This document shows, in pieces, positions 6,265-33,503 of a stretch of 64,000 nucleotides of DNA. Each line of letters begins with the position of its first letter. Position 1 is the stretch's first letter. The stretch is from a virus (lineage: Duplodnaviria > Heunggongvirae > Uroviricota > Caudoviricetes). A model generated the notes under the pieces. The model did no database searches. It was given only the letters and a program-made list of their open reading frames with translations, and was not told where the DNA came from. The DNA lies in the IMG/VR virus record IMGVR_UViG_3300014043_000277; one strand, 5' to 3'. Made by a program: the position numbers and the translations under genes.

Positions 6265-6277
6265 GTCATCAATGATA

Positions 6278-8815: not shown

Positions 8816-8855
8816 ACAGGCATGAAATTGATGATGGATTCAATTTCATGCCTGT
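8816..8855 (-). terminator. Hairpin/terminator
   Basis: 16-bp inverted repeat ACAGGCATGAAATTGA/TCAATTTCATGCCTGT. Confidence 0.55.
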
Positions 8856-8913
8856 GAATGATTCTAACGCGGGTCTGACGCGCTTAAACAATAATCATGA
8901 ATAAGGTTTCATA

Positions 8914-8949
8914 TTCATGTGTTCATGCCGTTTCATGTGTTCATGCCGT
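8914..8949. repeat. 18-bp tandem duplication TTCATGTGTTCATGCCGT x2
   Basis: Exact direct repeat at 8914-8931 and 8932-8949. Confidence 0.8.
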
Positions 8950-8960
8950 CAGAACGGCGT

Positions 8961-9350: not shown

Positions 9351-9368
9351 GTAATCATTAATATCTCA

Positions 9369-14898: not shown

Positions 14899-15010
14899 AA
14901 TAATATTCCAATCTTTTTGTATCCTATGTATGCAATGATATCATTATTTTTTTATAATATGGTTGATTATTAAATGTAATAGAATGTTATTTTATTAATT
15001 CTTTGTCTAT

Positions 15011-15049
15011 GAATGATGGCGGCGCGCATTTTGCGCGCCGCCATCATTC
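15011..15049 (-). terminator. Strong hairpin after nrdD
   Basis: 18-bp perfect inverted repeat. Confidence 0.7.
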
Positions 15050-15068
15050 TCATAGCTTCATACTAACA

Positions 15069-17591
15069 TTATTGCTTATGTGGATATTTTGCCCTATCGT
15101 CATAAAACACTTTAGCATTTCCATTAATTTCAATGCGTCCGGTTTCGCCATTTATTTCCTTTACACGAGATTCCAACTCTGAGTGACGACCATGAATCAT
15201 CGGACGAATCTGTGGTTCACCGAGGTAGCCGCACGTCCGTTTAGTGACAACGCATTTTGACGGATCATCGTTTCCGCATACAGGGCACTGATATCCCGTC
15301 TCAGTCGGCGCAAAATCACCTTTATATCCACATACATGACATTCATCTATTGGAGTGTTGGTTCCGAGATAGTCAATACCGATTTCATGCGCATAATCCC
15401 ATATTGCTTCCAGTCCTTTCAGGTTCTGTCGCATTGATGGATATTCCACATAAACGATATGTCCGCCTGCGCTGTATTTCAGGAATGGCTGTTCAAACTC
15501 TAGCTTGCTTGCGGCACCTCCATTTTCAGCGGTATGGAAATGTTCCCTGCCCATGACTTCTTTAATGGAATCTGATGGTTCACCATCAGGGTTTCCTGAT
15601 ATCCATACAGGGCGATGGAATGAATTGGTATAGAAATCCTTATCTGTAATACCATCAATTCTTCCGAATTTCTCACGATCCATTCTGTTGAACTTATCAG
15701 TTAGCGATTCAGCCGGTGTACCATATACTGAATAATGATAACCTTCTTCCTTCTCCCATTGCTTGCATAGTTCAGTCATTTTTTCGACAATGGACAGGGC
15801 AAATGAGCGAGCATCTTCATCCCATCCCCAGTTGTTAACCCAGTCTTTTCCATAGAATCTCGCTGTTGTTTCATACAGTCCGATATATCCGAGTGATATG
15901 GTTGCGCGGTTGTTCTTCATGAGTGAATCCACGCTTTCATCTGGATTCAAACGACCTAATGCACCATATTGCCATAGAACAGGAGCATTCAGTGGCGATG
16001 CTGTTTTAGTCCGTTGTATACGGAATTGCAATGCATGATGAGCCACTTCCATACGCTGATTGAAAATGCGCCAGAACCTTTTAATGTTTCCATTGCTTTC
16101 AATTGCGATGCGGGGAAGGTTGACTGATACAACTCCGAGATTCATTCTTCCATCATCGACAAGTTTTCCTGTTTCAGGATCGCGCCATGCTTGCAGGAAT
16201 GAACGGCATCCCATTGGTGCTTTGAAATCACCTGTTACATTAACAATGTTTTCATAGAAGAGGATGTCTGGATACATTCTCTTGCTGGAGCATTCCAGTG
16301 CGAGCTGTTTCAGGTCGTAATTAGGATCTGATGGTTCGCTGTTCACTCCATGTTTTATGGTGTATGTTAGTTTCGGGAAAATAGCGGTGCGGTGGTCTTC
16401 TCCGAGTCCTGCAATGCGTATGAGGAATATTGCGCGTGTTATCTCACGGGCGAACCAATCGGTTCCGAGTCCAAACCCTACTGTGATAAATGGCGTCTGA
16501 CCCGTGCTGCTGAAACACGTGTTGCATTGATATTCGAAAGTCTGCATTGCGTCATAAATATTCTTTCTGGTAAGTATTTTTGCATACAAACAACGGAGTT
16601 TGTCCAGTTCTGTTGCATTCTCATCGAATGGTTCGTCTTGAATGGCTGGACGTTCTGGAATATGCAAACGAGTGTTTTCATTTGCTTTCAATGAATCCAC
16701 TATTTTACGAGCCTGTTCTATATCCATTCCATCAGCGAGAACCATTGTAGCCATATCATAATTCTTACGATAGTTCTTTTCCGCGAACGGAGATAATATT
16801 TCATCGGCTCTGTTAACTGTTTGCCCGCCATACTGGTTGCTTGAAATGTTCTGAATTATTTGCGTTATTTGCGTCGCTGCTATTTCAATGCTTTTCGCTG
16901 GACCCATTGTGGCGTTACCGAGTTTGAATCCATTCTCTAGCATGTCTTTGAAATTAGGCAATGAGCAATTTGTCATTTTTGACAATGAATAGTCTGCGTC
17001 ATGGAAATGAATATCGCCTTTTGTATGAGCATTGGAAACATCTTTTGGAGCAATACGATAGAACGATGCTTTACTTATGGCACCTGCAAGCAGATCGCGC
17101 TGTGTTGCATAAACGTTGCTGTCCTTGTTCGCATTCTCATTCATAATGCCGGCATCTTTGCGCAGGAATCGTTTCACGGCTTCGTTGGCATCAGTCGCTT
17201 TCGCCCTTTCTTTCATGCGTTTCATTCTGTATTCACTGTAAGCATCGAACACATCTTCCAGATGGTAGTCCTCCAATAGTGTTGATTCCACGATTGATTG
17301 GATTTCCTCGATGTTCACACTGTGTTCATAGCGTCCACGGATTTTTGATGTCGCGCTCATGGCGATGCCATGGATGAGTTGTTTATCATCCGCATCCAAT
17401 GATTCTCCGTTCTTGCGGCGGATGTCCTTGATTGCGCCTGTTACCGCGTTCTCAATGGCTTCCGGATCGAAATCAACTATCCTTCCGTCGCGTTTCTCAA
17501 CTTTCAGCATGTCCTCAATGTTGTCATTGTATGCATTGTCCATGGTGTTCGTGATTCCTGCGCATGGTGTCAATACCGCTGTTCCTTCCAT
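15069..17591 (-). CDS. nrdD: Anaerobic (class III) ribonucleoside-triphosphate reductase
   Basis: ATP cone (VEKRDGR), MGCRSFL, YGTPAESL, zinc CxxC pairs and the glycyl-radical motif RTCGYLG. Confidence 0.95.
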   Translation of the reverse strand: MEGTAVLTPCAGITNTMDNAYNDNIEDMLKVEKRDGRIVDFDPEAIENAVTGAIKDIRRKNGESLDADDKQLIHGIAMSATSKIRGRYEHSVNIEEIQSIVESTLLEDYHLEDVFDAYSEYRMKRMKERAKATDANEAVKRFLRKDAGIMNENANKDSNVYATQRDLLAGAISKASFYRIAPKDVSNAHTKGDIHFHDADYSLSKMTNCSLPNFKDMLENGFKLGNATMGPAKSIEIAATQITQIIQNISSNQYGGQTVNRADEILSPFAEKNYRKNYDMATMVLADGMDIEQARKIVDSLKANENTRLHIPERPAIQDEPFDENATELDKLRCLYAKILTRKNIYDAMQTFEYQCNTCFSSTGQTPFITVGFGLGTDWFAREITRAIFLIRIAGLGEDHRTAIFPKLTYTIKHGVNSEPSDPNYDLKQLALECSSKRMYPDILFYENIVNVTGDFKAPMGCRSFLQAWRDPETGKLVDDGRMNLGVVSVNLPRIAIESNGNIKRFWRIFNQRMEVAHHALQFRIQRTKTASPLNAPVLWQYGALGRLNPDESVDSLMKNNRATISLGYIGLYETTARFYGKDWVNNWGWDEDARSFALSIVEKMTELCKQWEKEEGYHYSVYGTPAESLTDKFNRMDREKFGRIDGITDKDFYTNSFHRPVWISGNPDGEPSDSIKEVMGREHFHTAENGGAASKLEFEQPFLKYSAGGHIVYVEYPSMRQNLKGLEAIWDYAHEIGIDYLGTNTPIDECHVCGYKGDFAPTETGYQCPVCGNDDPSKCVVTKRTCGYLGEPQIRPMIHGRHSELESRVKEINGETGRIEINGNAKVFYDDRAKYPHKQ

Positions 17592-19500: not shown

Positions 19501-21498
19501 TCATTGAATCCATGAGAACACACGATTCCCGGACGTGCCGACGCGCAGATAACCTTCCAGCATCATAATCTGATTATTAGTGAGTCCACATGCATCCATG
19601 CTTCCATAATGAGTTCCGAGCAACCTGTCAGCACCCTGCCGGATGAGTGATGAATCCCTCACATGATTTAATGAACCGGGTTGTGACCAGCATACGCTGG
19701 CTCCGGTAGGTTCAAGTTCAATGAAACCACATGAACGCATGAAAGAATCGCGCATGGTCGAATGATCGAAATCCACATAGGAAATAACAGAGGATGGATG
19801 CATGTCAGCATTGAATGCATTGAATAGTTTAACTGCCGCTCCACGAATAATCAAATCCCTGCGAACCGCATAACGCAGCCATTCCCATTCATAATTCGCA
19901 TTATAACGCGGTTTGCCGAAAGAAGCGACGGCAATGATTTCACCTGCATGCATGAGAGCATAACAAGCGGATTGGCCACGAACATCACCTTGCACATGAT
20001 TCTCACGCAGGAACGCATTGATATCACGGGATTCAACTTTCACCACATTGCAATCATGTGCGGATAGTTTACATGTGATCGGCATGATATGCGATGCAAC
20101 CAGCCCACGCATGGTTTCATAGGAATCCCAATCATAGAACTGCAGATATGGTGTATTCAATGAATCCAAAGCGCTCATAGCCCTCTGATAATGATAATCC
20201 CGTGATACCGGCTTATGCTCACCGCAGGGTTGTGTGCATGAGTTCAGAATGCATTGGAACGGGACATCCATGTTATGAGTAATGGTCGGGTTGATGTCAA
20301 TGATAACATGCCGGTCATTAAGAATGCATTCAATGTCCGCATTCATTCCGTTCCCGATTGATGGTTCAAAATGAATGTCGCAATTTAAATCATTATTAAG
20401 TTTCTCAGCGATATCCCGGTTCAGTTTGCTTATCCTATGATGCGACATGTAATCAGGATCATTCGCCGCCCGCTCCGCTATCGTCTCTGATTTCCTCTGT
20501 TGGATTTCCGGAACCTTGCTTACATTGTCCACACCGTACTCATCAATGAGCGTTTCACGGATGCGCGCTTGTATTTCAGGTGATGAGAACGGATTCTCAA
20601 CGCCGTACCTGTCAATCATCGTAGCGTTTATCTTATCCTTGACTTCCGGTGCCTGCAATGACCAGTCCACGCCGTATTTCTCGCGGTTGGTCGCCATTGC
20701 CTTCTCCTTGTATTCATCAGTCTGCGTATACCAGTCCACGCCGTATTTCTCCTGATTTTGCTTACGTAGATTTTCACGGAACTCTTCTGACTGCATTGGA
20801 TGTTCAACGCCATATTTCTGTTTGCATGCCGACAATGCAGCCGCGCGAACAGCTGGAATATCCAATACGCTATCAACGCCATATTCTTTTTTCACAGTAT
20901 CATGAATCTTATCTTTCACTTCCTGTGATTGCATAGGATAATCAGTGCCGTAATGCTCACGTGATGTTGCTTTCTTCTTCTCCTTGACATCATCCAATTG
21001 GCTTACATTATCGACATCATACTTGTCTTTTATCAGCTTCTTGAAATTCTCGGTGCCGAACTGATAATTCTTATCCGGATTCTCCTCAAATGTTTTCTTG
21101 ATTTTAGCTTTCACCTCATCAGATTGGAATGGATTATCAACACCATATTTTTCCTGCGAATTCCTGCGGCGTGCTTTTTTATCCTTGCCACCGGCATGGG
21201 ATAAAGTCGCCGCGCATTTAGTCGAACAAGTCCGGACAGCCGCTTTCCTGCCATTGGATGTGTCAACAATGAAATCATGACCGCATACAACACAATTGCG
21301 ATGATGTTCCTTAGAACAGAATTTCTGCTGCGCGTATGTAGCCTCAAAATGCTCACCGCATATCACGCATGCCTTATCATAGGTCTTCCTGTTTTTCGCG
21401 CGCGCTTGACGGACGCATTCTTTTGAACAACATGCCTCATGTCCTTTCGGTGTGAACAGCTTACCGCAATTCCTGCATTTCTTCTGTTTCTTAGCCAT
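19501..21498 (-). CDS. Putative homing endonuclease: Zn-finger repeats, YGVD repeats, PD-(D/E)xK-like domain, Mom/GNAT-like C-terminus
   Basis: CxxC...CSxxC repeats; about 10 KYGV-D/E repeats; IDINPTITHN; FLRENHVQG...FGKPRYN..EWEWLRY...ISYVD...GF...GY.RV..SG. Confidence 0.65.
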   Translation of the reverse strand: MAKKQKKCRNCGKLFTPKGHEACCSKECVRQARAKNRKTYDKACVICGEHFEATYAQQKFCSKEHHRNCVVCGHDFIVDTSNGRKAAVRTCSTKCAATLSHAGGKDKKARRRNSQEKYGVDNPFQSDEVKAKIKKTFEENPDKNYQFGTENFKKLIKDKYDVDNVSQLDDVKEKKKATSREHYGTDYPMQSQEVKDKIHDTVKKEYGVDSVLDIPAVRAAALSACKQKYGVEHPMQSEEFRENLRKQNQEKYGVDWYTQTDEYKEKAMATNREKYGVDWSLQAPEVKDKINATMIDRYGVENPFSSPEIQARIRETLIDEYGVDNVSKVPEIQQRKSETIAERAANDPDYMSHHRISKLNRDIAEKLNNDLNCDIHFEPSIGNGMNADIECILNDRHVIIDINPTITHNMDVPFQCILNSCTQPCGEHKPVSRDYHYQRAMSALDSLNTPYLQFYDWDSYETMRGLVASHIMPITCKLSAHDCNVVKVESRDINAFLRENHVQGDVRGQSACYALMHAGEIIAVASFGKPRYNANYEWEWLRYAVRRDLIIRGAAVKLFNAFNADMHPSSVISYVDFDHSTMRDSFMRSCGFIELEPTGASVCWSQPGSLNHVRDSSLIRQGADRLLGTHYGSMDACGLTNNQIMMLEGYLRVGTSGNRVFSWIQ

Positions 21499-21609
21499 GA
21501 TTATAATCGTCTTTTTCTATCCGAATTCGTTATTTGCTTACATTTGCAATGATATCATTTAAATGTAAACAGGATGATTTTAAGCATGTTTTTTGAAATT
21601 TTTATATGA

Positions 21610-21649
21610 AAAACAACCATCAGAATTCCCATTATCCGATGGTTGTTTT
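21610..21649 (-). terminator. Intrinsic terminator
   Basis: AAAACAACCATC/GATGGTTGTTTT inverted repeat. Confidence 0.6.
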
Positions 21650-21681
21650 AATTCTATTTCATTCATGCATGCATTATGCGT

Positions 21682-21870
21682 TCATCGTCCGAACAATTGA
21701 TGAGCGCCGGGTGTTATCGTATCGGCAAGCCGGGTTATGGTATATAATGTCGCATCCCATATCCAGCTGACAACACCGAACGGATCCCATCCGAACACAC
21801 GCAGCACGGCAATCAGCACGGCTGCGCTGATGATGAAAATGAGCAGCCCCTTGAAAAACTTTCCAATCAT
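21682..21870 (-). CDS. Small membrane protein
   Basis: Hydrophobic N-terminus; GAGGT SD; promoter-like TATAAT upstream. Confidence 0.6.
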   Translation of the reverse strand: MIGKFFKGLLIFIISAAVLIAVLRVFGWDPFGVVSWIWDATLYTITRLADTITPGAHQLFGR

Positions 21871-21942
21871 GACAGATACCTCACATTAAAACGATTAACC
21901 TTATAATACATTATATCTATCAGTTATATGATATGAGTCATA

Positions 21943-23169
21943 TCAATCCACAAGTTCCTCCATGTCCTCATCCCAGTCATTACGAGGATCATGCTTGATA
22001 CCAGCCTCGCCTTTCAGTACAGGCTTGTCAAAGCCGGATGAATCACCTGGTGCCTGCAATGCCTGCACTGCCTCCGCGTGCGCCGCAGCCTGCTGTTCGC
22101 GTGCGGCGGCGATGGCTTCAATGTCATCATTGTTATCATCCAATGTCATGTTCTGCAAACCGGCGACATCAGCTGAATTTGTATTCACTGATGGTCCTGT
22201 GGACAATGGCGTCAAATCAGGGTTCAATCCTTTCTTGGCAAGCCAATCGACCATCCATGTGTAATCCTTCGTGAAATACACTTGAATGCGCTGCGGTTTC
22301 TGTCCGACATTCATGACAGCCGCACGGCCTTTTGGTGCCGCAGGTGTTTGTGTTCCTGTTCCATCATCGAACAACATGCTGGATGCAGTTGATGTCAAAT
22401 GTCCACAGCCCGCCCTGAACATAAGATTTTCCTTTAATTCTCCGGGCACTAGTTTCGCGTCTGGTCGCTGCGTGGCGATTAGCAAATGGACGCCCGCAGC
22501 ACGTCCCAGTCGGGCTATGGATCCAATGATTGACTGAGCCTGTCCTTTCAGCTCCATTTCCTTTTTGGCTTCATCGCTTCCCTTGCCGCCACTCATGTCC
22601 AACAATTGTCCACATTCGTCCACCATGATGAGCAATGCGGGTCCGTGGTTCGGCAGGTCCGCGAAATTGTTCACGCCTGCCTTCTGCATCTGATCGTAAC
22701 GGCTCATCATCTGGTCATTGCCGAATTTCAGTATTTCAACTGCGTCCTCCAGTGTCGTTGCGATTCCGAGCACGGTATCCGAGAAAATCGTATACGGCGA
22801 AAGCTCCACGCGCTTCAAATCGATGCCGAGGAATTTGATATCTTTACTGGCCGCTATGCAATGAAACACGCAAAGACGTTGAAGAACCGATTTACCGCCG
22901 CCCGTATTATGCGTCAAAACATTACTATTGACCGCATACAGATGGTCGCATGCATCCACTTTAATGCATCTCACTGGTTCTTTTTCTATTTCCGTGCTGT
23001 TTTTGATGCGATACCATCCGCCTTTCGCACCGGGAATGAGGAAATTGTCCACACCTGCATTCAAAATGTCCTCATATGTAAGATTCTTTATTTCGCTGTC
23101 GCGTTTATCCTTGACTGTCCAGATGTGCCTTCCGTCGCATTTAACTTTCATTGTGTTCATTGTATCCAT
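21943..23169 (-). CDS. FtsK/TcpA-like ATPase, C-terminal half, fused to the C-fragment of a split intein
   Basis: 88-aa intein fragment ending LTHN, then TGGGKS, IDLKRVEL, MVDE and RLGRAAGVHLLIATQRP (FtsK motifs); start 23169 from TGATATT-N8-ATG. Confidence 0.9.
   Translation of the reverse strand: MDTMNTMKVKCDGRHIWTVKDKRDSEIKNLTYEDILNAGVDNFLIPGAKGGWYRIKNSTEIEKEPVRCIKVDACDHLYAVNSNVLTHNTGGGKSVLQRLCVFHCIAASKDIKFLGIDLKRVELSPYTIFSDTVLGIATTLEDAVEILKFGNDQMMSRYDQMQKAGVNNFADLPNHGPALLIMVDECGQLLDMSGGKGSDEAKKEMELKGQAQSIIGSIARLGRAAGVHLLIATQRPDAKLVPGELKENLMFRAGCGHLTSTASSMLFDDGTGTQTPAAPKGRAAVMNVGQKPQRIQVYFTKDYTWMVDWLAKKGLNPDLTPLSTGPSVNTNSADVAGLQNMTLDDNNDDIEAIAAAREQQAAAHAEAVQALQAPGDSSGFDKPVLKGEAGIKHDPRNDWDEDMEELVD
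22906..23169 (-). other. Split class-3 intein, C-fragment (blocks B, F, G)
   Basis: CDGRHIW (block B His/Trp), PVRCIKVD (block F Cys), LTHN followed by +1 Thr. Confidence 0.85.
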
Positions 23170-23240
23170 GTTCATTGAATATCATGTATTTTTCATGGTT
23201 TTCTGTCATGTTTGAACCGATGAATGGTATCATTGCATAT

Positions 23241-24847
23241 ATGGCCGGACATTTGAATATTATGATGACTTCGGATGAGAATCTTATGATGTTGTTTGAT
23301 GTGTCGTTGAATCCGGGTGTGAATCCTGATTCAATCGCGGCTGGTTCTGCTAAAAAGTTAAATTGGCGTTGCGTTCATGATAACAGGCATGTGTTCAGCA
23401 TGTCGCCGTCGAATCTTGTTAATCAGGGATATCGTTGCCCTGCTTGTCTGGGAAACATGTGCATTGCAGGCGTGAATGATCTTGCGACTGAGCATCCGCG
23501 TTTGGCGCGGTTGTTTGATTCCAATGCTAACAATGTGAAGCCATCAATGATCACATCGCATGGACGCGCCGCCACAATCCATGATGAGCATGGCAGGAAA
23601 ATTAACCCGTCATGGATTTGCCGTAACGGTCATTCTTTCAAACGTGCGTTGAAAGACATGGCTTCATTGGATGATTCCGGGAAACTCATGGATTTTGATG
23701 GTTGCCAGTATTGTTCAGGCAGGAAGGTTCTTCCTGGTTTCAATGATGTCGCCACGATGCATCCTGAATTAGTGCCTTATTGGTCGCCTGCGAATAAGTT
23801 GGAACCGACTGATGTTACCAGTGGTTCCAATGAACACATAATATTGCGTTGTCCGAAAGATGGCCATGAATGGACTACGACTGTAAATCGTGCGTGCATT
23901 AAAGGTTTCACTTGCGCTGATTGTGCTGGGAAAGTGTTGCATCCTGGTGTTAATGATGTGGCGACATTGTGTCCATGGCTTGTGAAACAATGGACGCCAT
24001 CAAATGATAAATCACCATCTGAGGTTCGTGCGAATGACAGTACGTATATCGCGGATTGGATTTGCGATGAATGTGGTTACGAATGGCGTGTGAAGGTGTC
24101 ATCACGATGCTATTTCAATTCCGGTTGTCCTGCTTGTTCGGTATTCAATGCAACGGTTAATAAGAATAATTCATTGGCTGCGAAACGGCCTGATATTGCG
24201 AGATTCTTCGATCCTGAGTTGAACAATGGCGTGACAGCGGATGAAATCAGGGCTGGTTCCAGCAGAATATTCAATTGGCGTTGTCCGAATTATCCTGATC
24301 ATGTTTTCACCATGAGCGTATATGCGCGCTGTAAGATGAAAGGCGATTGCGTGTATTGTTCGAATGATCGTGTTCTCATTGGGTTCAATGATCTTGCCAC
24401 GACGCATCCGGGATTATGCTTGGATTGGTCGCCATTGAACACATTGAATCCAACTGATGTTGTCGCTGGTTCTGATATCACTGTGAAATGGAGTTGCCAT
24501 GTTTGCGGATGGGATTGGGAAACCCCTGTGTATAAACGGGCGACGGCAGGGCGCGGCTGTCCGAATTGCGCTCGAATATTGTTGAATTCGGGTTCGAGTA
24601 ATTTTGAGCGTGAAATTCATGATTTCATGCAATCATTGTGTCCGGATATTGGTTTCATTTCGAATGACAGGAAAGTGTTGAATGGCAGGGAATTGGATGT
24701 GTATGCTCCGGATTTGCATATCGCATTGGAATTCAATGGTTTGAAATGGCATTCATTGGATGCATTGCAATCAAGGACTTCGGATGCGTTCAATTATCAT
24801 CAGTGTAAAACAAAGGATTGTCTGGATGATGGTATAATGCTTGCTAT
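23241..24847 (+). pseudogene. Zinc-ribbon repeat / Vsr-like endonuclease gene, 5' part, interrupted by the IS
   Basis: Repeated W.C..GH/CP.C..ND.AT.HP units; SNFE...ELDVY...ALEFNG.KWHS; frame restored (GIMLAMLYEPDW) by removing 24848-26306. Confidence 0.8.
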
Positions 24848-24959
24848 CAATCATGTGAGAGAACACCGCACTTCAGGGCGGTGATGAATCACGCACACAT
24901 AACCAACTCTCTATATGGTGCTTTCAATCGAGAATTATCTGGTATTTTTAAATCAAACT

Positions 24960-24988
24960 TTGCATTATCCAAGAGAATATGATATCAT
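24960..24988 (+). promoter_or_regulatory. tnpB promoter TTGCAT-N17-TATCAT (likely leaderless)
   Basis: -35 at 24960-24965, -10 at 24983-24988, ATG 7 nt downstream. Confidence 0.55.
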
Positions 24989-24995
24989 AGTAAGC

Positions 24996-26258
24996 ATGAG
25001 TTCATACAGGCGCTATAATTATCGTGCATACCTCACGCAAGGTCAACGCGCGGCTTTAACGCGCCTGTATGGAGCGTGTAGGTATGCTTACAACTGGGTT
25101 ATAGACCAACGTGAGATCATGCGCACCCGCCATGGTAAGATGCAGACTTACGCGCAGCTGAGTAGCATGTTCACACAGTTGAAACAAGACCCTGACCACC
25201 AGTGGCTTCAGAAGATGTCATCCACACCGTTGCAACAAGCTATCCGTCATGCTGACACAGCGTATAAGAACTTCTTCAGGCTATATAATGCTGGTAAAAC
25301 CAAGATCATTGTTAATAAGCGCACTGGTAGGAAACGCATCACAGGTAAACCGCGCTTCAAGAGTCGGAGGGACGGCGAGCAATCCGCTGAGTTCACCAAA
25401 GCTGCACGATTCAAGGTCGAGCATGTGAATGGATGCAAGTGGGGTTTTCTAACATTGCCTAAAATCGGACGCATTAAGATTCGTTGGACACGCGATATGC
25501 CGTCAATGCCGAATAGTGTGAGCATGATGAAGCATGCTGATGGCACGTACGAGGTTAGTTTCGTTGTGCAGGTCGATGACATTATTATCGCACCAGAACC
25601 GCTGCATGATTCGTGTGGTATCGACATGGGATTGGATTCTCTCATGAGCATCGTTTACACGGACGGAACCCGTGAGAAAATACCGCATCCTCGCACGCTT
25701 AAGAAACATGCTCACAAACTACGCAAGCTTGATAAACAAATGGCACGGCAGAAGAAAGGTTCAAACAATCATGCGAAAACACGGACACTGAGAGCAAGAG
25801 AATACAGTCATATCAAGAACCAGCGCAAGGACATGGCGTTCAAGCTGGCTTCTAAGGTGGTGGGCGAGAACCAAGCCGTCGCTTTGGAGACACTGAATGT
25901 TAAGGGTCTTGCACGCACCTGTCTGGCGAAAAGCCTGTTGGATGCGAACTGGACTCGCATTATCGACCGCATCCAGCAGCTCGCCGCGCAGTCTGGCAGG
26001 GATTTTCATCAGATTGACCGCTGGTATCCCAGCAGTCAGATATGCTCCGTGTGCGGGCATCGTGATGGTAGGAAACCATTGAATGTGCGCGAATGGCAGT
26101 GTCCTAATTGTGGCGCGTATCTGGATCGTGATTGGAATGCTGCTTTGAATATTCTTGACGCGGCTGGACTAGCCGAGTCATTAAACGCCCTGGCTTGCGC
26201 CAGTCACAACGCTGACGCCAATGAAGCGGGAACCCACCGAACCGCAAGCCTCCATTAA
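24996..26258 (+). CDS. tnpB: RNA-guided endonuclease TnpB
   Basis: HTH N-terminus, RuvC-I GIDMG, RuvC-II LETLN, zinc finger CSVC...CPNC, RuvC-III DRDWNAA; catalytic D-E-D intact. Confidence 0.93.
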   Translation: MSSYRRYNYRAYLTQGQRAALTRLYGACRYAYNWVIDQREIMRTRHGKMQTYAQLSSMFTQLKQDPDHQWLQKMSSTPLQQAIRHADTAYKNFFRLYNAGKTKIIVNKRTGRKRITGKPRFKSRRDGEQSAEFTKAARFKVEHVNGCKWGFLTLPKIGRIKIRWTRDMPSMPNSVSMMKHADGTYEVSFVVQVDDIIIAPEPLHDSCGIDMGLDSLMSIVYTDGTREKIPHPRTLKKHAHKLRKLDKQMARQKKGSNNHAKTRTLRAREYSHIKNQRKDMAFKLASKVVGENQAVALETLNVKGLARTCLAKSLLDANWTRIIDRIQQLAAQSGRDFHQIDRWYPSSQICSVCGHRDGRKPLNVREWQCPNCGAYLDRDWNAALNILDAAGLAESLNALACASHNADANEAGTHRTASLH

Positions 26259-26326
26259 GGCGACCGGCGTAGGAATCCCACACCTTCATGAGTGGGAGGA
26301 AGTCAAGTTGTATGAACCGGATTGGT
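26115..26326 (+). ncRNA. Putative TnpB omegaRNA/reRNA with flanking guide (GTTGTATGAACCGGATTGGT)
   Basis: TnpB reRNAs overlap the tnpB 3' end and the right end; this is the segment retained in the mini copy; 5' boundary uncertain. Confidence 0.55.
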
Positions 26327-26820
26327 TGTCCCATAGTGAGATAACAATGGATTGGCTGCGGCGCTGGTTGGATGTGCCTGCTGTGAGTGCCATGGATGCA
26401 TCATGTTTGCATGTGAAATCATTGAATGCGGGTGATGATGGTTGGAATGATGCGGTTTCATGGTTGTCCGGGAATTCAATTCATCAGCGGATTGGTTCAC
26501 GGACGGTCATGCTCATTGATGATGATTCATGCATCCATGCGTGCATGATGCTGGATGGGAATGTCATTATCGGTTATGCGGAACGGTTGGATGAGAATGT
26601 GAATAATGGTTTCAATATGCTTGTGTCCTATGCGGGTGCCGTGTCCATGCGTTCAATGTTGCCGCCGTTGTCCTGTATGCATGTCGATTCGGTTGCGTTG
26701 GATGGTTCTCCGGTTGCGTATGAGGTTCACGGGAAATCATTGGAACGTGTTGATTGCATTGATGGCAGAGATTCAGTGAATATTATCATTGGTTCCGGTG
26801 ATTATATGTTCCGGTTATGA
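26307..26820 (+). pseudogene. Zinc-ribbon endonuclease gene, 3' part
   Basis: In-frame continuation LYEPDW... of 23241-24847 after IS removal (706-aa reconstruction). Confidence 0.75.
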
Positions 26821-26844
26821 TTCGGATGCGATATAATTGATTAT

Positions 26845-27846
26845 ATGGATACATATTATGATATTGTTAAGAGCGTCATTGAGTCAACTGGCGTTGATTA
26901 TGTTGAGAATGACAAGTCCGTGTGGCTTGACGGGTTGGATTTCGCTGTTCCTTCCAGGAAACTTGCGATTAAGATTAATCGTGTAAGCATTGAGAACAAT
27001 GATGTCACTGCAACCGTTCCTATCCGTGAGCGCGGTTATCATAAGAAAATGCATGATACGGTTGAGAAGGCAGGATGGGAATTGTTGTCATTGGATGACA
27101 GGCAGCTTGTTGATCCGAGCTGGTCGAACATCACGAAACCGTTTATTCTGATGAAAATCGCCGGAACAGCCGAGCATGTGATTTATGGGCGTGATGTTTC
27201 CATTATGCGCGCTGAGGTTTCGGCTGATTTGCGTTATGCGAATGATTTCCTGAAAAGGTATCATTTCGCGGGGCATGCATCCGCACAGGATACTTTCCTT
27301 ATTCGTTGTGAGAATCCGCGTAATGGCGTGCATGTCGGTGATGTCGTTGGCGTGTTCTCATTGCGTAATGTCCGTAATAAACCGGACATGATTGAAATCG
27401 CGCGTGTCGCATGGCGTCCTGGTTATCAGGTTCGTTATGGCTTGTCGAAAATCATCGATGTGATTAAAGAGACTCATCCTGAACGTCATCGTATTCTTTC
27501 ATTCAGCGATAACCGAATGGGTAACGGTCAGTCATATGGCAAGGCTGGCTTCCGTTATGATGGTGATACTTCCCCTTCCCTGTGGTTCATTAATCCGGAT
27601 GATCCGAATGATTCCTATTCATGGCAGGTTGCGACAAGCTGGGGTGCGAAACAGGGTGTGATTGCGAAATCATTCGAGAAGCATGGGTTGACCGTCCCGC
27701 CGAACTGCACGAATCAGAAGGCGCGTGAAATCGTTGAAACCACTCTTCCGCATCGTCATGATGGAGGCAATGGTTACAGGTCATATGTTGATTGCGCGAA
27801 TAAACGATGGCTATTGGATTATGATATGAGCGCAGATAAGAAATAA
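26845..27846 (+). CDS. Degenerate nuclease + Mom/GNAT-like domain protein (paralogue of 19501-21498)
   Basis: LDFAVPSRKLAI; FLKRYHFAG...EIARVAW...LSFSDNRMGNGQSYGKAGF...GYRSYVDC; TATAAT-N7-ATG. Confidence 0.6.
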   Translation: MDTYYDIVKSVIESTGVDYVENDKSVWLDGLDFAVPSRKLAIKINRVSIENNDVTATVPIRERGYHKKMHDTVEKAGWELLSLDDRQLVDPSWSNITKPFILMKIAGTAEHVIYGRDVSIMRAEVSADLRYANDFLKRYHFAGHASAQDTFLIRCENPRNGVHVGDVVGVFSLRNVRNKPDMIEIARVAWRPGYQVRYGLSKIIDVIKETHPERHRILSFSDNRMGNGQSYGKAGFRYDGDTSPSLWFINPDDPNDSYSWQVATSWGAKQGVIAKSFEKHGLTVPPNCTNQKAREIVETTLPHRHDGGNGYRSYVDCANKRWLLDYDMSADKK

Positions 27847-27886
27847 TGTTATCATTTGTTCACATTTACGGACAAAAAGATGGTTA

Positions 27887-27926
27887 AAAATCCGTGGGAA
27901 TGTTTGATTATGTTCCCACGGATTTT
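27887..27926. terminator. Bidirectional intrinsic terminator
   Basis: AAAATCCGTGGGAA/TTCCCACGGATTTT between convergent genes. Confidence 0.7.
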
Positions 27927-28085
27927 GCATGTTTGATAATCGTAATCATTGGTTTGACGATTCATCATTATGACGCAATCAGGATTTGATGATAATGATG
28001 TCGAACCAGGGTTCCGAAAGAATATATGAAATTTCGTAGCGGTGATTATGCCAGCATGGGATTCAATCTATTTTTTATCATCTAA

Positions 28086-29846
28086 TCATTCATCAACCGG
28101 TTCCAATTCCAGTTCATAAAGATGTTCAGGGTTCATTATCCGTGAAACGCCTGTAACCGTCGTGTAAGCGCCGTTTGAACCGAGAATGCGTTCTCCTTCA
28201 TGTATGTCCATTAACGTCGTTTGTGAGCCATCCTCGCGCGTTATAACGGTATCCAAAGCGAGAGGCGAACCGCAATTATGCGTCGGAATGCCATGATGAC
28301 ATGCATTCAACTTGTTCGCAGTGGTTTCGGCATCATGAGTCGCTGCAATCAGGAACGTGTGCGTCGGGTCATCCACACGAATGCATTTCACTGGCTCCGG
28401 TGTCATGAATGCGATTGAATACACCTGCCAGTTAATGAGTCGTTCACCATCATGCACGGGTGATAATACAGGACGTATTCCATGTTGGACAAGTTCATAT
28501 ATTTCCATGCTTGTCATTTCCTTGACCGGTTCGCCGGTGTCATAATCGCCTGACTGCATTGCATGCGCTGTCGCGTTCACATCGACAGGCCAGATATGTT
28601 CCGATGCTGCTTTCACAGTATGCATCCTGTCTTTGTCATCGTTGCGATCAATGAAAACAATGCGGAACATTTCATCCGGCGTATGTGTTTCCGTGAGTCC
28701 GGTGATTGTTGTTTCAACTCCCATTTCCGATAGCACGACATCATCTTTCCGTAATGCGTCCATTCTGACTGCATTGTATTCATCAGCGGCGTTCTTGTTC
28801 TTACGCCAGATGAGAGTGTCAACCGATAATGGAACCAACGCCATCGGGGTGACTTTCAAATCCCAGTATGCTTCGCCGGAAACGGTTCGCCCGAGTTTGA
28901 TTTGATTCCATGGGCCTTTATCGAAATCAACTGGTAATGATGCCATTGTCGGCAATGGCGGCACTGTTCTCAGATAAGCGGTATGACCGGGGAAATCCCA
29001 TCCGCTTATTGTTTTCATTTGACCTGGGTGTTTCTTATCCGGGACATCTCTTTCCGCGACCCATTCCGTTACATGCCCGAATGCCTCATTCAAATGCATG
29101 AGCGTATCATCGGTTCCCGCTTCACGGAATGTAGCCGGGAATGTAACCTGCATGTCCAATGGCGTTGTTCTGAATTCAGCGATGCGTGGTTGTTTCACAT
29201 GTCCGCGTTTATCAGGTTTCGGGATGTCCTTTTCAAATTCTTCCAGTTCACCATCCTCCATGGCTTTCGTGCGTCCATCAGCGATTAACTGTGGCTCCTC
29301 TGATGTTGTCCATTGCCCTATTTTAATGATTTCACGTGGATTCATGTTCGCGTCAGTTCCCATGTGCGCTTTCACGACAGTGAAAATCGTATCATAAATA
29401 TCCTTCTCCGCTTTTATTCTTGCTGAACCCTGCTGAGCCGCGACAACAGCCCATGACATTCCAATGAGAATGCCAATCACTGTCAATGCGGTTTGGCTGG
29501 TGTTAATTCCCATGATTCCGATAATGGATCCAATTGCAATCAGGATTACATACAGTTTCCGCCATGTCATCGCGGCAGGACCTGGGTCAACGGCGATTCC
29601 CCATTTGTTCCGTTTCTCCTGCTTTTTTGAAATCAATCTGGTGTCAGTTAATGCCTGTTTGATTTTCAATGTGAATTCAGGGCGTTTTGGTTCGAATAAG
29701 TCAGTTGATTTCAAACCTTTCGCACGACGTTTTTTCGGATCATTGAATGATGACTGTCGAATCATGTCGATTATCCATAGGACTAATTCCGCAAGGATAA
29801 GCGGTCCTATGGAACACGCGGCTATAACGCCTATTATCGTCATCAT
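28086..29846 (-). CDS. FtsK/TcpA-like ATPase, N-terminal half (TM segments), with one complete intein and the N-fragment of a split intein
   Basis: TM helices; IKLGRT...WDLKVTPMALV, then intein 1, CGS, then the intein N-fragment to the stop. Confidence 0.88.
   Translation of the reverse strand: MMTIIGVIAACSIGPLILAELVLWIIDMIRQSSFNDPKKRRAKGLKSTDLFEPKRPEFTLKIKQALTDTRLISKKQEKRNKWGIAVDPGPAAMTWRKLYVILIAIGSIIGIMGINTSQTALTVIGILIGMSWAVVAAQQGSARIKAEKDIYDTIFTVVKAHMGTDANMNPREIIKIGQWTTSEEPQLIADGRTKAMEDGELEEFEKDIPKPDKRGHVKQPRIAEFRTTPLDMQVTFPATFREAGTDDTLMHLNEAFGHVTEWVAERDVPDKKHPGQMKTISGWDFPGHTAYLRTVPPLPTMASLPVDFDKGPWNQIKLGRTVSGEAYWDLKVTPMALVPLSVDTLIWRKNKNAADEYNAVRMDALRKDDVVLSEMGVETTITGLTETHTPDEMFRIVFIDRNDDKDRMHTVKAASEHIWPVDVNATAHAMQSGDYDTGEPVKEMTSMEIYELVQHGIRPVLSPVHDGERLINWQVYSIAFMTPEPVKCIRVDDPTHTFLIAATHDAETTANKLNACHHGIPTHNCGSPLALDTVITREDGSQTTLMDIHEGERILGSNGAYTTVTGVSRIMNPEHLYELELEPVDE
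28089..28265 (-). other. Split class-3 intein, N-fragment (59 aa, Pro1)
   Basis: PLALDTVITREDG..T.MDIHEGERILGSNG....V...S.....LYELEL is block A plus following strands; the ORF stops before block B. Confidence 0.85.
28275..28832 (-). other. Class-3 mini-intein (186 aa, Pro1)
   Basis: PLSVDT start, AASEHIW, PVKCIRVD, PTHN followed by +1 Cys. Confidence 0.85.
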
Positions 29847-29850
29847 GAAT

Positions 29851-30417
29851 TCATTCCTTTCCGGATAGTTTTTCAGTTAACGTTCCCAGCCCGATACTGC
29901 CTTTAACATGCAGTTTTACACTATCATATGATATGAAATATCGTTTATTTTCATGTTCGCAATACATATAACGGCTATCCCTGCTGTTATTCAGGTTATC
30001 GCCGCGAACAAACAATGAATTCGCCGGTATTGTGAACTTATTGGATTCAATGTTTCCATTCATCCTATCGCATCCTCCGGTGTAACCGGTTTCATTATCT
30101 GCGAGAACGCCATTAACGCGGATTCTTCCATTCATGTCAATGCTTATTTCATCACCGGGGATTCCGATTACCCGTTTAATGAGATATTCATCATCGCCTG
30201 TCCATCCGTCATCATCATGGAAAACGATGATGTCATTGCGTCCAATGTCATCATGTGATGTGGAGCCATAAACAATATCACCATCATGCAATGCTGGCAT
30301 CATGCTTTCACCGGATACATGAGCGAGATTATCCGTCATGCTTAAACCGGCACCGCAGCTTATGATTATCACTGTTATTATAAGTATTATGCTTATTGTT
30401 TTCTGTCTTATTGTCAT
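29851..30417 (-). CDS. Signal peptidase I (S26)
   Basis: VSGESMMPAL, LIKRVIG and GDNLNNSRDSR. Confidence 0.9.
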   Translation of the reverse strand: MTIRQKTISIILIITVIIISCGAGLSMTDNLAHVSGESMMPALHDGDIVYGSTSHDDIGRNDIIVFHDDDGWTGDDEYLIKRVIGIPGDEISIDMNGRIRVNGVLADNETGYTGGCDRMNGNIESNKFTIPANSLFVRGDNLNNSRDSRYMYCEHENKRYFISYDSVKLHVKGSIGLGTLTEKLSGKE

Positions 30418-31739
30418 GATTTCATGTCATCATCCCCGACTTTTTCAAATACGTTGAAACCGCTTGCACCGAGAAGTTCCACGTTGCTTGTCTGCATGAA
30501 TGACCGTTCGCGTATTTTATCGCCAGGCATGCTTTCCAATAATAAATCCTGCTGATCACCTTTTGTCCATGTGAGTATGATTCCGGCGCTTGAATAAGCA
30601 TTACGGACGATTTCAACGGTTTGTTTCAAATCCTCAACATCATAGGATGTTACAACCATGCGATACACGCCTTCCAGCCATGGATTGTCGTTCTTATTAG
30701 TGTAAGCCTCCAATTCCATTGCTTTCTGATAATCCTCCTGTAAATCCAATGAAATATTATGACCTCCTGATGCCGCGTTGCCGCCCTCATCTTCCAAATC
30801 CATTTTCTGATGGGTTACTTCCTTTTTCATTTTCTTATTCGGAATAAGATCGAACCTGCCATACATGTCAAATGGCAATCCCATTTTCTGCATCATGTAA
30901 ATCCATGGTGTTCCACCTGGAACCTGCATGTTCTCAGGGAATTTACTGAATGTCAATGTCGCCCTGTATCCAGTGAGTACATGACCCATCATTGGTTGTG
31001 AGATTTCCGTCCATAGTTTATTTTTGATGAGAATTCCGCCGAGTTCGCGAACCATGTCTCCCTTGCCCCATCTTCCATTCGCTGGAACGTCAAGATACGG
31101 TGTCGGCATTGACGGATAGAATGTGCGCTTCATGACAAGCGCGATTTCCTCGGCTTCCGGGCGCGTCGCCATCATTTCGCTGCTATGGAAGAAATTATAA
31201 TAATCCTCCTCCATTGCTTTCGCGTTTTTGATTTCCTTATCACTGATTGAATAATCATCGATACCAGCCGGAACGAAAATAATGTCCTTCACATATTGCA
31301 ATGCCTGATCGAAACCGGCTTCCAGTTGACGCATGAATCCTTTCATGCTGACATCATGCCTGTCGGCCATTTTCACTCCGACGTAAATTTTACGGCTCAT
31401 GTATTCACGTGATTTCAAATATTGGACTTGATTCGCGAAATATTTATTGAAACCGGGTTTCCTATCCCAGCTTTCCGTCGTGCGTAGGAATTGATCCTCC
31501 CAGTGATCAATGTCCACTGGCGTGTTCGTGATGATGAGATGCATTGGAATGCGTTCATCCTTATTCGCCATCATATCAGCGAATGCTTTCGTCATGTTGT
31601 TAAGCATGTTCAATTTGGAACCGTCATCCATGAAATCATAGCTCTGTGTATTCACGGTGAAATACGCCCATATTTCATTTTTGCTGAATACAATGTTGTC
31701 AACGATTCCGCGCATCTGAATATCTAATTTCTCTGCCAT
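30414..31739 (-). CDS. VirB4/ConE/TcpF-like protein, N-terminal half only
   Basis: IVDNIVFSKNEIWAYF...YDF resembles the Tn916 Orf16/ConE N-terminus; ends LGASGF...VGD just before the ATPase domain; no Walker A. Confidence 0.65.
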   Translation of the reverse strand: MAEKLDIQMRGIVDNIVFSKNEIWAYFTVNTQSYDFMDDGSKLNMLNNMTKAFADMMANKDERIPMHLIITNTPVDIDHWEDQFLRTTESWDRKPGFNKYFANQVQYLKSREYMSRKIYVGVKMADRHDVSMKGFMRQLEAGFDQALQYVKDIIFVPAGIDDYSISDKEIKNAKAMEEDYYNFFHSSEMMATRPEAEEIALVMKRTFYPSMPTPYLDVPANGRWGKGDMVRELGGILIKNKLWTEISQPMMGHVLTGYRATLTFSKFPENMQVPGGTPWIYMMQKMGLPFDMYGRFDLIPNKKMKKEVTHQKMDLEDEGGNAASGGHNISLDLQEDYQKAMELEAYTNKNDNPWLEGVYRMVVTSYDVEDLKQTVEIVRNAYSSAGIILTWTKGDQQDLLLESMPGDKIRERSFMQTSNVELLGASGFNVFEKVGDDDMKS

Positions 31740-31751
31740 GATAATGTAATA

Positions 31752-33503
31752 TCAGTTTTCGCGTTCCATGATTTCCCTGAATTTTTCAGCATAGGCACGG
31801 GTGTTATCCGATGATATCCGTGAATCCATTGCGGGCATGTGTTTGGCATGGAACGCAGCGGCTGTATCCATACGGCGTTTACTATTCAATAATGTGATTT
31901 GATCCTCAAACAGGCCATCAATGTCAACAACAGGCGCATAACCCTCAAACTGCCTCATCATTTCCGTCGCTGTCTGCAAACGGTTCAATGTCAATTCCGA
32001 CAGGTTCAGATTATCATTTGCTATTTTCTCCTGAATTATCCTGTATCTTTTCGCCATTGGCAATCCAATCAATCGCGGACGCAATTCCTTCTGTTCGATT
32101 GCAAGCGCAAGAATGTAATCCTCCGGTTGCAGATCCTTCGCATTGCCATCAATGAACACATCCGATGGTTTACGGTTATTCTTATCCTTGCCATGCCATG
32201 CGCTGCGTTTCAATGATGATGAATCCGCGCCTGATTTCAATGACACGTACGCGATGAAATTATCCGCGAGAATCGGATCGCTGATGGTTTTATAAGCATC
32301 CATGCATTCATTTATGAATACACGGCGACCATTATCATCCGCGAGATTATGTTTACTTGCAAGCCAGTCAATGATATGATGATATAACGGATGCACGTTA
32401 TCCAATTGTCTCAGCAGCGCCTGCGGATCATCACGATACATGTCGCTTGCATCCTTATCACCGAGCGGAATCGTTGCATATGATTGCGATTGAATCACAG
32501 GAACCGCTTTGAATGTCCTTAAAGCGGCTTTCTGACCTGCTTCATCCGCATCGAACATGAATACAATGCGTCCATCCGGTGTAACCATTCGACGCAGCAG
32601 ATTAGCATGCTCCGTTGTGAACGCCGTTCCGCTTGATGCGACAGTGTTCAATTTACCGGCATGCTGGCATGCAATCACATCAAATTGTCCCTCAACGACA
32701 TACACTGTCTTATCAACGTTTGCTTGTTTACGGGCGATATCCTCACAGAACAGGACATTGCTTTTATGGAATACAGGATTATCAGCGGAATTCACATATT
32801 TGCCTTTTGATTTATCATCATCATAAACAATGCGTCCAGTGAAACCAATCGGATTACCGCTCATGTTACGAATGACGAACATGAGACGCGCGCGCCATGG
32901 GAAATGCAATGAACCATCCTCCCATTTATGGGCGACACCCGATTCAATGAGTTGCTTTTCAGTGAATCCTTTTTTCATGAGCGCATTGACGACATATTTA
33001 TCATCCTCCGGTGCCCATCCGAACAAATCATGATTGCATGCGTTATCAACAGGAATGTTTCTTTTGGAAACCTGACGTTTCGCCGCATGATCATCAGGAA
33101 GCCGGTCATACAGGTTTTTCAATGCTTTCGATGTTAACAATAGGATTTCACGGATTGTCTTACGAGGTGTCGCATCAGTGTCATAATCATCATTATGATA
33201 ATCAATGTTAAGTTCCTCCGCAAGCATTTCCACGCCATCCATGAATGGGATTCCCTCTGTTTTCTCCATGAATGAGAAAATGTCAAATGATTCGCCGCAA
33301 CCGAAACAATGACATGTTTGAATTCCTTCCGGTGGTGGAACCATGCATGATGGTGTTTTCTCCGAGTGGAACGGGCATAGCATTTTGAATCTGTTCGGAC
33401 CGGATGGTTTCACATCATAACCGTGCCGTTCAAGGAACGTGAGCATCGGCATTCTCATTTTAATCTCATCAGCAACATTACGCAGCTTATCATTATTCAC
33501 CAT
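31752..33503 (-). CDS. dnaG: DNA primase
   Basis: CHC2 zinc finger CPFHSEKTPS...CFGC, KYVNS, TOPRIM VEGQFD and FDADEAG; start 33503 from TGATATCAT-N7-ATG. Confidence 0.92.
   Translation of the reverse strand: MVNNDKLRNVADEIKMRMPMLTFLERHGYDVKPSGPNRFKMLCPFHSEKTPSCMVPPPEGIQTCHCFGCGESFDIFSFMEKTEGIPFMDGVEMLAEELNIDYHNDDYDTDATPRKTIREILLLTSKALKNLYDRLPDDHAAKRQVSKRNIPVDNACNHDLFGWAPEDDKYVVNALMKKGFTEKQLIESGVAHKWEDGSLHFPWRARLMFVIRNMSGNPIGFTGRIVYDDDKSKGKYVNSADNPVFHKSNVLFCEDIARKQANVDKTVYVVEGQFDVIACQHAGKLNTVASSGTAFTTEHANLLRRMVTPDGRIVFMFDADEAGQKAALRTFKAVPVIQSQSYATIPLGDKDASDMYRDDPQALLRQLDNVHPLYHHIIDWLASKHNLADDNGRRVFINECMDAYKTISDPILADNFIAYVSLKSGADSSSLKRSAWHGKDKNNRKPSDVFIDGNAKDLQPEDYILALAIEQKELRPRLIGLPMAKRYRIIQEKIANDNLNLSELTLNRLQTATEMMRQFEGYAPVVDIDGLFEDQITLLNSKRRMDTAAAFHAKHMPAMDSRISSDNTRAYAEKFREIMEREN

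Follow-up and report, generated by a model that had tools for sequence, protein, structure and literature searches.

The locus described here lies at positions 21943–29846 of a 64,000-nucleotide stretch of DNA, hereafter the window, from the Caudoviricetes virus record IMGVR_UViG_3300014043_000277. It encodes an FtsK/SpoIIIE-like ATPase in two open reading frames (ORFs), the N-half and C-half genes, both on the minus strand. The 4.9 kb separating the halves contain plus-strand genes only and have a GC skew opposite in sign to that of the flanks. The N-half contains a complete intein (intein 1) and the N-terminal fragment of a second one (IntN2 of intein 2), and the C-half begins with the matching C-terminal fragment (IntC2). 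The features of the two genes are as follows (aa, amino acids).

28086..29846, minus strand: N-half gene, 586 aa, comprising the N-extein, intein 1, Cys-Gly-Ser and IntN2; homologs of the same architecture are found at 40–97% identity
28833..29846, minus strand: N-extein, aa 1–338, ending in ...VTPMALV; aligns with the N-terminal parts of the unsplit proteins P0131, P0163 and P0122
28275..28832, minus strand: intein 1, a complete class-3 mini-intein of 186 aa, aa 339–524 (PLSVDT...GIPTHN), recognized by motifs, model and Protein Data Bank (PDB) matches
28266..28274, minus strand: Cys-Gly-Ser micro-extein that separates the two inteins and belongs to the Walker A loop, invariant in all N-halves
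28089..28265, minus strand: IntN2, 59 aa, aa 528–586 (PLALDT...LYELELEPVDE), with Pro1, block A and an acidic tail, followed by a stop codon at 28086–28088
21943..23175, minus strand: C-half gene, 410 aa from the ATG at 23175, comprising IntC2, TGGGKS and the FtsK/SpoIIIE core
22906..23169, minus strand: IntC2, 88 aa (90 from the first ATG), with blocks B, F and G, ending in LTHN before TGGGKS
21943..22905, minus strand: C-extein with the +1 Thr, TGGGKS, the FtsK/SpoIIIE ATPase core and an acidic tail; stop codon at 21943–21945

The host ATPase and intein 1

The membrane-anchored N-extein has hydrophobic segments near its N-terminus. The C-half matches Pfam FtsK_SpoIIIE (PF01580; E 1.3e-13) and PHROG 1358 'FtsK/SpoIIIE-like protein' (E 2.4e-39). 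A Walker A motif (GxxGxGKS/T) and an FtsK-type ATPase core are both present, and the host protein is an FtsK/SpoIIIE-like membrane ATPase. The Walker A motif is complete only when both inteins are removed, which yields the P-loop MALV-CGS-TGGGKS in a predicted rejoined protein of ∼661 aa. The C-half has four candidate ATG starts (23175, 23169, 23160 and 23151), among which the ATG at 23169 is the one preceded by a recurrent TGATATT-N8-ATG motif.

Intein 1 interrupts the P-loop three residues upstream of intein 2. Its key residues are Pro1, His79-x-Trp81, Cys150, Thr-His-Asn at 184–186 and a +1 Cys, and Cys150 is invariant in the aligned relatives. The AlphaFold2 model of intein 1 has a mean predicted local distance difference test (pLDDT) value of 90.4. 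The best PDB matches of the model are the class-3 DnaB inteins 6riy (Mycobacterium chimaera) and 6bs8 (Mycobacterium smegmatis), with E 1e-6 and a template-modelling (TM) score of 0.83 by target, and class-1 inteins rank lower. A sequence search of solved structures with intein 1 returned nothing significant. As a contiguous intein with these residues, intein 1 should splice in cis.

Split intein 2 and its break point

Class-3 inteins are defined by the lack of a nucleophile at position 1 and by Trp at N3:12, Cys at C2:4 and Thr at C1:5 (PMC7891396). In IntC2, numbered from the ATG at 23175, block B contains His17-Ile-Trp19 within DGRHIW, block F contains Cys70 (F:4) within PVRCIKVD at the position of the class-1 Asp, and block G contains Thr88-His89-Asn90. 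Conservation was assessed in 11 N-fragments (the window and 10 relatives) and 18 C-fragments (the window and 17 relatives). Pro1, in place of a Cys, Ser or Thr nucleophile at position 1, is invariant in all 11 N-fragments. The block-B His and Trp, the block-F Cys, the His-Asn pair and the +1 Thr are invariant in all 18 C-fragments, and the block-G Thr is kept in 17 of them, with Ser in the other. Intein 2 carries the canonical class-3 WCT signature, and a catalytic use of Cys70 is predicted.

On intein 1, the two fragments occupy adjacent stretches, with IntN2 matching residues 1–58 (28% identity, E 5e-6) and IntC2 matching residues 68–164 (E 2e-5). The intein 1 model places the break in the loop that connects strands 55–62 and 69–76, a hairpin that leads into block B, and not in the long loop after block B (intein 1 residues 85–135). 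The loop after block B is where endonuclease domains reside and where nearly all natural split inteins are broken. Since the break precedes block B, IntN2 retains only block A and the scissile Ser-Pro bond, and every catalytic side chain is located on the C-half. The genomic layout is that of a split intein, in which IntN2 ends in a stop codon, IntC2 has its own start 4.9 kb away and antisense genes lie between them. A coincidence of the break with the HINT symmetry boundary is not claimed; the profile–profile match between IntN2 and IntC2 was not significant (probability 2.6%, E 0.018). In repeated MAFFT alignments, IntN2 fell over the N-terminal half of IntC2, and BLAST returned a second, weak match.

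A contiguous form of intein 2 is found in P0260 (L015 5001–7190, also in L016). P0260 carries the same intein at the same site in one reading frame, CGG/PLTLDT...ITHN/TGGGKS, and the two window fragments again map next to each other on it. IntN2 matches P0260 aa 222–274 (39% identity, E 6e-7), and IntC2 matches aa 396–475 (40% identity, E 1e-19). Exactly at the break, P0260 contains a 121-aa insert that has no counterpart in the window. In an AlphaFold2 model of the P0260 intein built from a hand-checked alignment, the flanks reach pLDDT values of 79–97 and 77–94, and the insert remains below 50. The best PDB matches of this model are likewise the class-3 DnaB inteins 6bs8 and 6riy (E 3e-7). 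Intein 1 and the P0260 intein are thus both modelled with a HINT fold and resemble solved inteins, the class-3 DnaB inteins foremost. The position of the insert indicates that this lineage of inteins can accommodate insertions in the hairpin loop, and the split form has the appearance of a final stage of such an insertion.

Other relatives have the P-loop uninterrupted by intein 2. P0131, P0134, P0140, P0162 and P0163 read ...THNCGSTGGGKSVLQR..., with intein 1 present and intein 2 absent. P0131, P0134, P0140 and ∼20 similar proteins are 77–78% identical to the window in the C-extein and carry IPTHN-CGS-TGGGKSVLQR in one polypeptide; P0162 and P0163 are more distant and have the same contiguous reading. 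P0122, which is free of inteins, reads ...MLVCGTSGGGKSVLQR... (also ...HMLVCGTSGGGKSVLQR...). The P-loop join in the window is therefore not a chance one, as relatives have the loop contiguous without intein 2 or without any intein.

These results bear out most of a preliminary description of the locus that was made from the window alone. Its ORF coordinates, residues and motifs were all correct. The join TPMALV-CGS-TGGGKS that it proposed is genuine, as relatives carry the same P-loop contiguously. The class-3 signature that it assigned (Pro1, Trp, Cys and Thr) recurs across relatives, with the single block-G substitution given above, and the motifs and the model mapping agree with its placement of the break before block B with the catalytic residues all on the C-fragment. 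It had also suggested looking for a contiguous allele among relatives, and both a contiguous allele (P0260) and an intein-free allele (P0122) were found.

The association of the two fragments was examined by complex prediction. Run with separate alignments, the pair of IntN2 (preceded by CGS) and IntC2 (followed by TGGGKS) scored 0.55, versus 0.01 for the best of three controls. In calibration, 58 of 80 solved complexes attained the pass mark, as did 2 of 110 mismatched pairs; only 7 of those 80, and both passing mismatches, did so with scores of 0.60 or less. The runs agreed in at least 97% of the contacts, and the partner pLDDT was at least 74. Since solved split-intein complexes exist, the pass may reflect likeness to them rather than binding. 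The prediction is weakly in favor of an IntN2–IntC2 association.

The preliminary description had counted 12 Asp/Glu against 3 Arg in IntN2, which is correct, and had suggested that this acidic tail pairs with a basic start of IntC2. The acidic half of that suggestion stands, with a net charge of −7 to −13 in IntN2 across relatives. The basic half does not; IntC2 is about neutral (net 0 to +6, with −2 to +2 in the first 30 residues). Only the acidity of IntN2 is conserved, and an acidic–basic zipper of the fragments is not evident.

Several relatives show further interruptions of the same ATPase. In P0259, P0261, P0273 and P0285, more distant C-halves with the same IntC2 start end inside a second class-3-like intein. 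This second intein lies at the Walker B region (...DEAGELLD..SAKAL...) and is contiguous in P0040, P0045 and P0047. In the genomes of those four C-halves, the coding sequence of the ATPase seems to be broken into three or more pieces. A third insertion site in the same P-loop, GK/S, holds contiguous class-3-like inteins with LAGLIDADG domains in P0052, P0057 and P0049. At the GK/S site of P0167 and P0218, short N-terminal IntC pieces (..RCI.VDS....THN/S) are found, which would imply a class-3 intein split at the canonical site. The GK/S-type C-half of L014 has a DUF7487 gene as its neighbor.

Intein 1 also varies among relatives. In L015 (4965–7190), the ORF with the contiguous intein 2 starts just after block A of intein 1, with no N-extein directly upstream, and the N-half P0139 stops after ∼50 residues of intein 1. 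In these relatives, intein 1 appears to be split near its N-terminus. In the alleles that lack intein 2 (P0131, P0134, P0140 and ∼20 similar ones), intein 1 contains low-complexity inserts of 100–300 aa rich in Asn, Thr, Ser, Asp and Ala. The inserts lie between blocks F and G, just before ...GIPTHN, and not at the canonical endonuclease-insertion loop.

Conservation, intervening cassette and expression signals

The split is old and maintained, and both halves are under purifying selection. C-halves that start 4–12 residues before the motif xVxCDGxHxW were found at 53–99% identity in about 40 clusters (defined at 90% identity), and N-halves that end in IntN2 and the acidic tail were found at 40–97% identity; both ORFs are intact in dozens of clusters. 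Both halves are present on one contig with antisense genes between them in L001 (554 kb), L003 (326 kb), L013 (277 kb) and L012 (139 kb). The C-half of L007 is preceded by DUF4379 genes that span more than 10 kb. The two halves of L009 have opposite orientations, are separated by 7.5 kb that carry unrelated genes, and each remains intact. Three genes of the ADP-ribosyltransferase exotoxin family PF03496 lie between or beside the L009 halves (8576–9844 and 14504–16433), and the same DNA also carries a cytosine methylase gene and an NlpC/P60 gene.

Ratios of nonsynonymous to synonymous substitution rates (dN/dS) against three close relatives were 0–0.10 for CGS and IntN2, 0.20–0.23 for IntC2, 0.13–0.24 for intein 1 and 0.02–0.35 for the exteins; these values are based on small substitution counts, and saturation affects the more distant pairs. 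In a tree of the ATPase core, which is effectively unrooted, alleles lacking intein 2 fall into two groups within the split-bearing ones, which indicates a patchy distribution of intein 2.

The region between the halves contains the following plus-strand features.

23184..24847, plus strand: 5′ part of a DUF4379 (treble-clef zinc-finger) endonuclease-like gene; Pfam DUF4379, E 3.5e-60; start uncertain
24848..26306, plus strand: TnpB (IS605-family OrfB) element of 1,459 bp with the tnpB ORF at 24915–26258; Pfam OrfB_IS605, Cas12f1-like_TNB and HTH_OrfB
26307..26820, plus strand: 3′ remnant of the DUF4379 gene, severed by the TnpB element; found by blastn to L001
26845..27846, plus strand: 333-aa homing-endonuclease-like/Mom-like gene, antisense to the FtsK halves; PHROG matches and a weak Pfam Mom match

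The layout is that of a fractured gene, in which endonuclease-like genes lie between the halves of a split intein. The DUF4379 gene is an intact 725-aa ORF in L001 and L013 and adjoins the C-half in six relatives (L001, L003, L007, L011, L012 and L013). Its full-length ortholog P0258 matches PHROG 559 'HNH endonuclease' (3e-34) and PHROG 3339 'homing endonuclease' (3e-19). A solved-structure search with the C-terminal part of the DUF4379 protein found nothing significant. On these family matches, the DUF4379 gene is likely to encode the free-standing homing endonuclease associated with the fracture. The 333-aa protein matches the same two families (PHROG 3339, E 8e-16; PHROG 559, E 8e-11), and its gene occupies the same place in L001, L012 and L013. 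In L001, a 369-bp segment (6215–6583) that is absent from the window (at ∼28050) lies between the N-half stop codon and the 333-aa gene.

The TnpB element accounts for the extra 1,459 bp of the window relative to L001 (95% nucleotide identity) and is absent from L001, L012 and L013. In two metagenomes, its word depth is 10–20 times that of the flanking sequence, and run X2 has contigs of the empty-site form that connect the two sides of the insertion. Both observations identify the element as a multicopy insertion sequence that arrived later. TnpB was rejected as the cause of the split, as close relatives with the same split lack the element. With the DUF4379 gene broken, the intein copy in the window is probably no longer mobile.

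The two halves have the following candidate expression signals, both on the minus strand.

27886..27926, minus strand: terminator-like hairpin with a 13-bp perfect stem, an A run before it and a T run after it
23167..23184, minus strand: TGATATT-N8-ATG before the C-half start, a candidate extended −10 promoter
3949–3966, 23167–23184, 31737–31754, 44860–44877 and 48010–48027, minus strand: copies of TGATATT-N8-ATG found by a motif scan of the window

The hairpin lies 160 nt past the N-half stop codon, between the convergent N-half and 333-aa genes, and was missed by an automatic terminator scan. The five copies of TGATATT-N8-ATG in the window compare with 0.77 expected, and all of them precede minus-strand gene starts. 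The shorter form GATATT-N8-ATG is kept before the C-half in L001, L013, L007 and L003, the last of which is distant. This pattern suggests an extended −10 promoter that would give a leaderless or short-leader mRNA. The terminator and the antisense genes that the preliminary description had placed between the halves are both present, and we infer that the N-half and C-half have separate expression signals and are transcribed separately. Contigs of two metatranscriptomic libraries cover the 333-aa gene and parts of the N-half at low depth, and none lies on the C-half; such libraries may contain DNA and missing cover is no proof of absence, and no conclusion on expression was drawn.

The locus is present in bovine, sheep and other gut metagenomes from at least 14 studies, and its source is a giant or very large mobile element of ruminant guts, either a phage or a plasmid. 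A megablast search of positions 21500–30500 against a phage collection gave no match, and no relative was recovered when viral contigs were searched by pattern for either extein. The window also encodes an intein-containing DNA polymerase III alpha (PolIII alpha), GyrB, a Snf2-like helicase, ParA, DnaG, NrdD, an AAA_10 ATPase and a T2SSF-like protein. The PolIII alpha protein (52231–57669, minus strand; 1,812 aa) matches Pfam Intein_splicing at aa 436–626 (E 6e-23), which marks the element as one with inteins in several replication or motor genes. Three DUF7487 genes are found on the minus strand (19501–21498, 13096–14898 and 60283–62064). The protein encoded at 60283–62064 also matches PHROG homing and HNH endonuclease families, and the window is dense in endonuclease-like paralogs. 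The AAA_10 ATPase (E 1.7e-51) and the T2SSF-like membrane protein are encoded at 43175–44362 and 47101–48012 on the minus strand, and an S26 signal peptidase gene adjoins the N-half. These three genes suggest a pilus or secretion module, which may work with the FtsK-like ATPase.

Proposed trans-splicing, competing explanations and known inteins

It is very probable that a naturally split, trans-splicing class-3 intein rejoins the fractured FtsK-like ATPase at Walker A. In the proposed mechanism, two class-3 inteins would be removed from sites three residues apart in the Walker A loop (..ALV-CGS-TGGGKS..). IntN2 and IntC2 would associate into one HINT domain, to which the N-fragment would bring no more than block A, three or four strands and the scissile bond. 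Cys70 (F:4) of the C-half would attack the Ser(−1)-Pro1 bond and take the N-extein as a thioester, and the N-extein would then be transferred to the +1 Thr. Cyclization of Asn90 would free the intein, and an O-to-N shift would produce the intact P-loop in the ∼661-aa protein. The cassette would represent the intein's free-standing homing-endonuclease-like genes, one of which would later have been inactivated by TnpB. A fuller version of this proposal, in which the N-fragment works without any catalytic residue, the break uses a loop unused by known splits and the ATPase requires both a cis and a trans splicing event before it becomes active, perhaps in an ordered or conditional manner, is possible but rather doubtful.

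Several points weigh against trans-splicing. The reaction and its spliced product are both predictions from the sequence. No solved or characterized intein is split at this position, and a productive assembly of a 59-aa fragment without block B would be unprecedented. With IntC2 not being basic, the electrostatic capture known from some split inteins is not evident. Pfam Hint models detect neither intein in the N-half of the window, and the small number of substitutions behind the dN/dS values limits the argument from selection.

The halves could instead associate and no longer splice, giving a non-covalent two-chain ATPase or two proteins with separate functions. The deduced nature of the chemistry, the unprecedented break point and the weak association prediction would all suit such an outcome. 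It is nevertheless unlikely, given that a domain of ∼147 aa (together with intein 1, if that is unspliced) would then sit in Walker A between GS and TGGGKS. Moreover, residues that serve only the chemistry (the block-F Cys, His-Asn and the +1 Thr) are invariant in 18 diverged C-fragments, and intein-free relatives keep the loop contiguous. Decay is another explanation, in which the endonuclease cassette broke a mini-intein and left two ORFs as remnants. The cassette is selfish and is itself being degraded by the TnpB insertion, and of the two halves the N-half alone has RNA-library contigs, a pattern that does not demonstrate absence on the C-half. Against these points, both ORFs are intact at 40–99% identity in dozens of 90%-identity clusters, dN/dS is well below 1 in exteins and intein fragments alike, both halves have survived the L009 rearrangement and the start motif of the C-half is conserved. 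A dead gene is therefore highly unlikely.

Rejoining at the level of DNA or RNA, in which the 4.9-kb cassette is excised or inverted or the transcript is spliced, would restore a contiguous frame of the kind that the distant relative P0260 proves viable. This route is extremely improbable in view of the conserved stop codon of IntN2 after a variable acidic tail, the separate start and upstream motif of IntC2, the antisense orientation of the cassette genes and the mutual inversion of the halves in L009. DNA contigs of two runs also contain no joint that skips 23176–28085, and the only joints found are those that skip TnpB. The last explanation is an assembly artefact that combined halves from different strains or molecules. 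Contigs of the best-matching run do break at the multicopy TnpB element, and those of run X1 match 21500–24899 and 26277–30500 without difference. Contigs of run X2, however, bridge the TnpB site, and TnpB-free relatives assembled independently (ENA and Logan; several samples) have the N-half, the cassette and the C-half on one contig (L001, L012, L013 and L003). With the same gene order recovered in these assemblies of other samples, the probability of an artefact is close to negligible.

To our knowledge, one natural split class-3 intein has been characterized so far. The preliminary description knew of none, and its claim has to be corrected for AceL NrdHF (Hoffmann et al. 2020, PMC7891396; PDB 6zgq). 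AceL NrdHF, with fragments of 98 and 48 aa (∼146 aa in total), is broken at the canonical site; its triplet is MCT, two conserved His residues are missing, and a GIY-YIG gene separates the halves of the gene for its host protein, NrdF (PMC7891396). No split form was found among 1,701 class-3 inteins in nr (PMC7891396). AceL NrdHF and the window intein share the absence of a position-1 nucleophile, Cys F:4, Thr G:5, a phage-like metagenomic contig and a fractured gene with a free-standing endonuclease gene between the halves. They differ in the break, as block B is on IntN in AceL NrdHF, whereas the window intein is broken before block B into 59 and ∼88 aa. Unlike AceL NrdHF, the window intein also has the canonical WCT and His-Asn residues, DUF4379-type genes, an FtsK-like host and another class-3 intein located 3 aa upstream. 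The structure 6zgq ranks low in structural similarity, at 40 for intein 1 and 33 for the P0260 intein. As AceL NrdHF is already known, the novelty of the window intein lies in its break point, canonical WCT motif and context, not in its category. A full-text search, in which journal coverage was incomplete, found no literature report of a natural split before block B or of a split intein in an FtsK-like protein.

The class-3 DnaB inteins (M. smegmatis DnaBi1, 6bs8; M. chimaera DnaB-1, 6riy/6rix) share the WCT signature and the insertion into a P-loop ATPase and are the best structural matches, but they are contiguous in nature and only 16–18% identical to the window inteins. M. smegmatis DnaBi1 split artificially at residues 94/95, in the canonical loop after block B, splices and, like the window intein, has both nucleophiles and the terminal Asn on the C-fragment (PMC10559147). 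Natural atypical class-1 splits with a very short IntN are also known, for example PolB16 OarG with 15 aa (PMC10189870). The PolB16 OarG type resembles the window intein in its non-canonical natural break, larger C-fragment and phage-like metagenomic DNA. It differs in belonging to class 1, with a nucleophile at IntN position 1 and a break soon after block A, whereas the window break lies ∼45 residues further on in a class-3 intein. Dassa et al. (2009; PMC2677866) describe fractured genes as split-intein genes with a free-standing endonuclease between the halves in phage-like environmental DNA. The cassette of the window contains two antisense endonuclease-like genes and a nested TnpB, and the halves can be more than 10 kb apart or inverted in relatives.

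The allele series, from no intein through a contiguous intein with an insert at the break to the split form, shows a route to a non-canonical split. Split inteins are widely used protein-ligation tools, and natural ones usually outperform engineered splits. The 59-aa, catalytically inert and highly acidic N-fragment would let the reactive C-piece be kept apart from a passive tag. If the fuller version of the proposal is true, the host family in related giant elements would be a natural test bed in which class-3 inteins are split at several positions. In the window, selfish DNA is nested three deep, with an insertion sequence in an endonuclease gene, in a split intein, in an ftsK-like gene. A conserved motor ATPase of very large ruminant-gut elements has apparently long been dependent on protein splicing, and this dependence persists even though the selfish endonuclease, the probable creator of the fracture, is now decaying.

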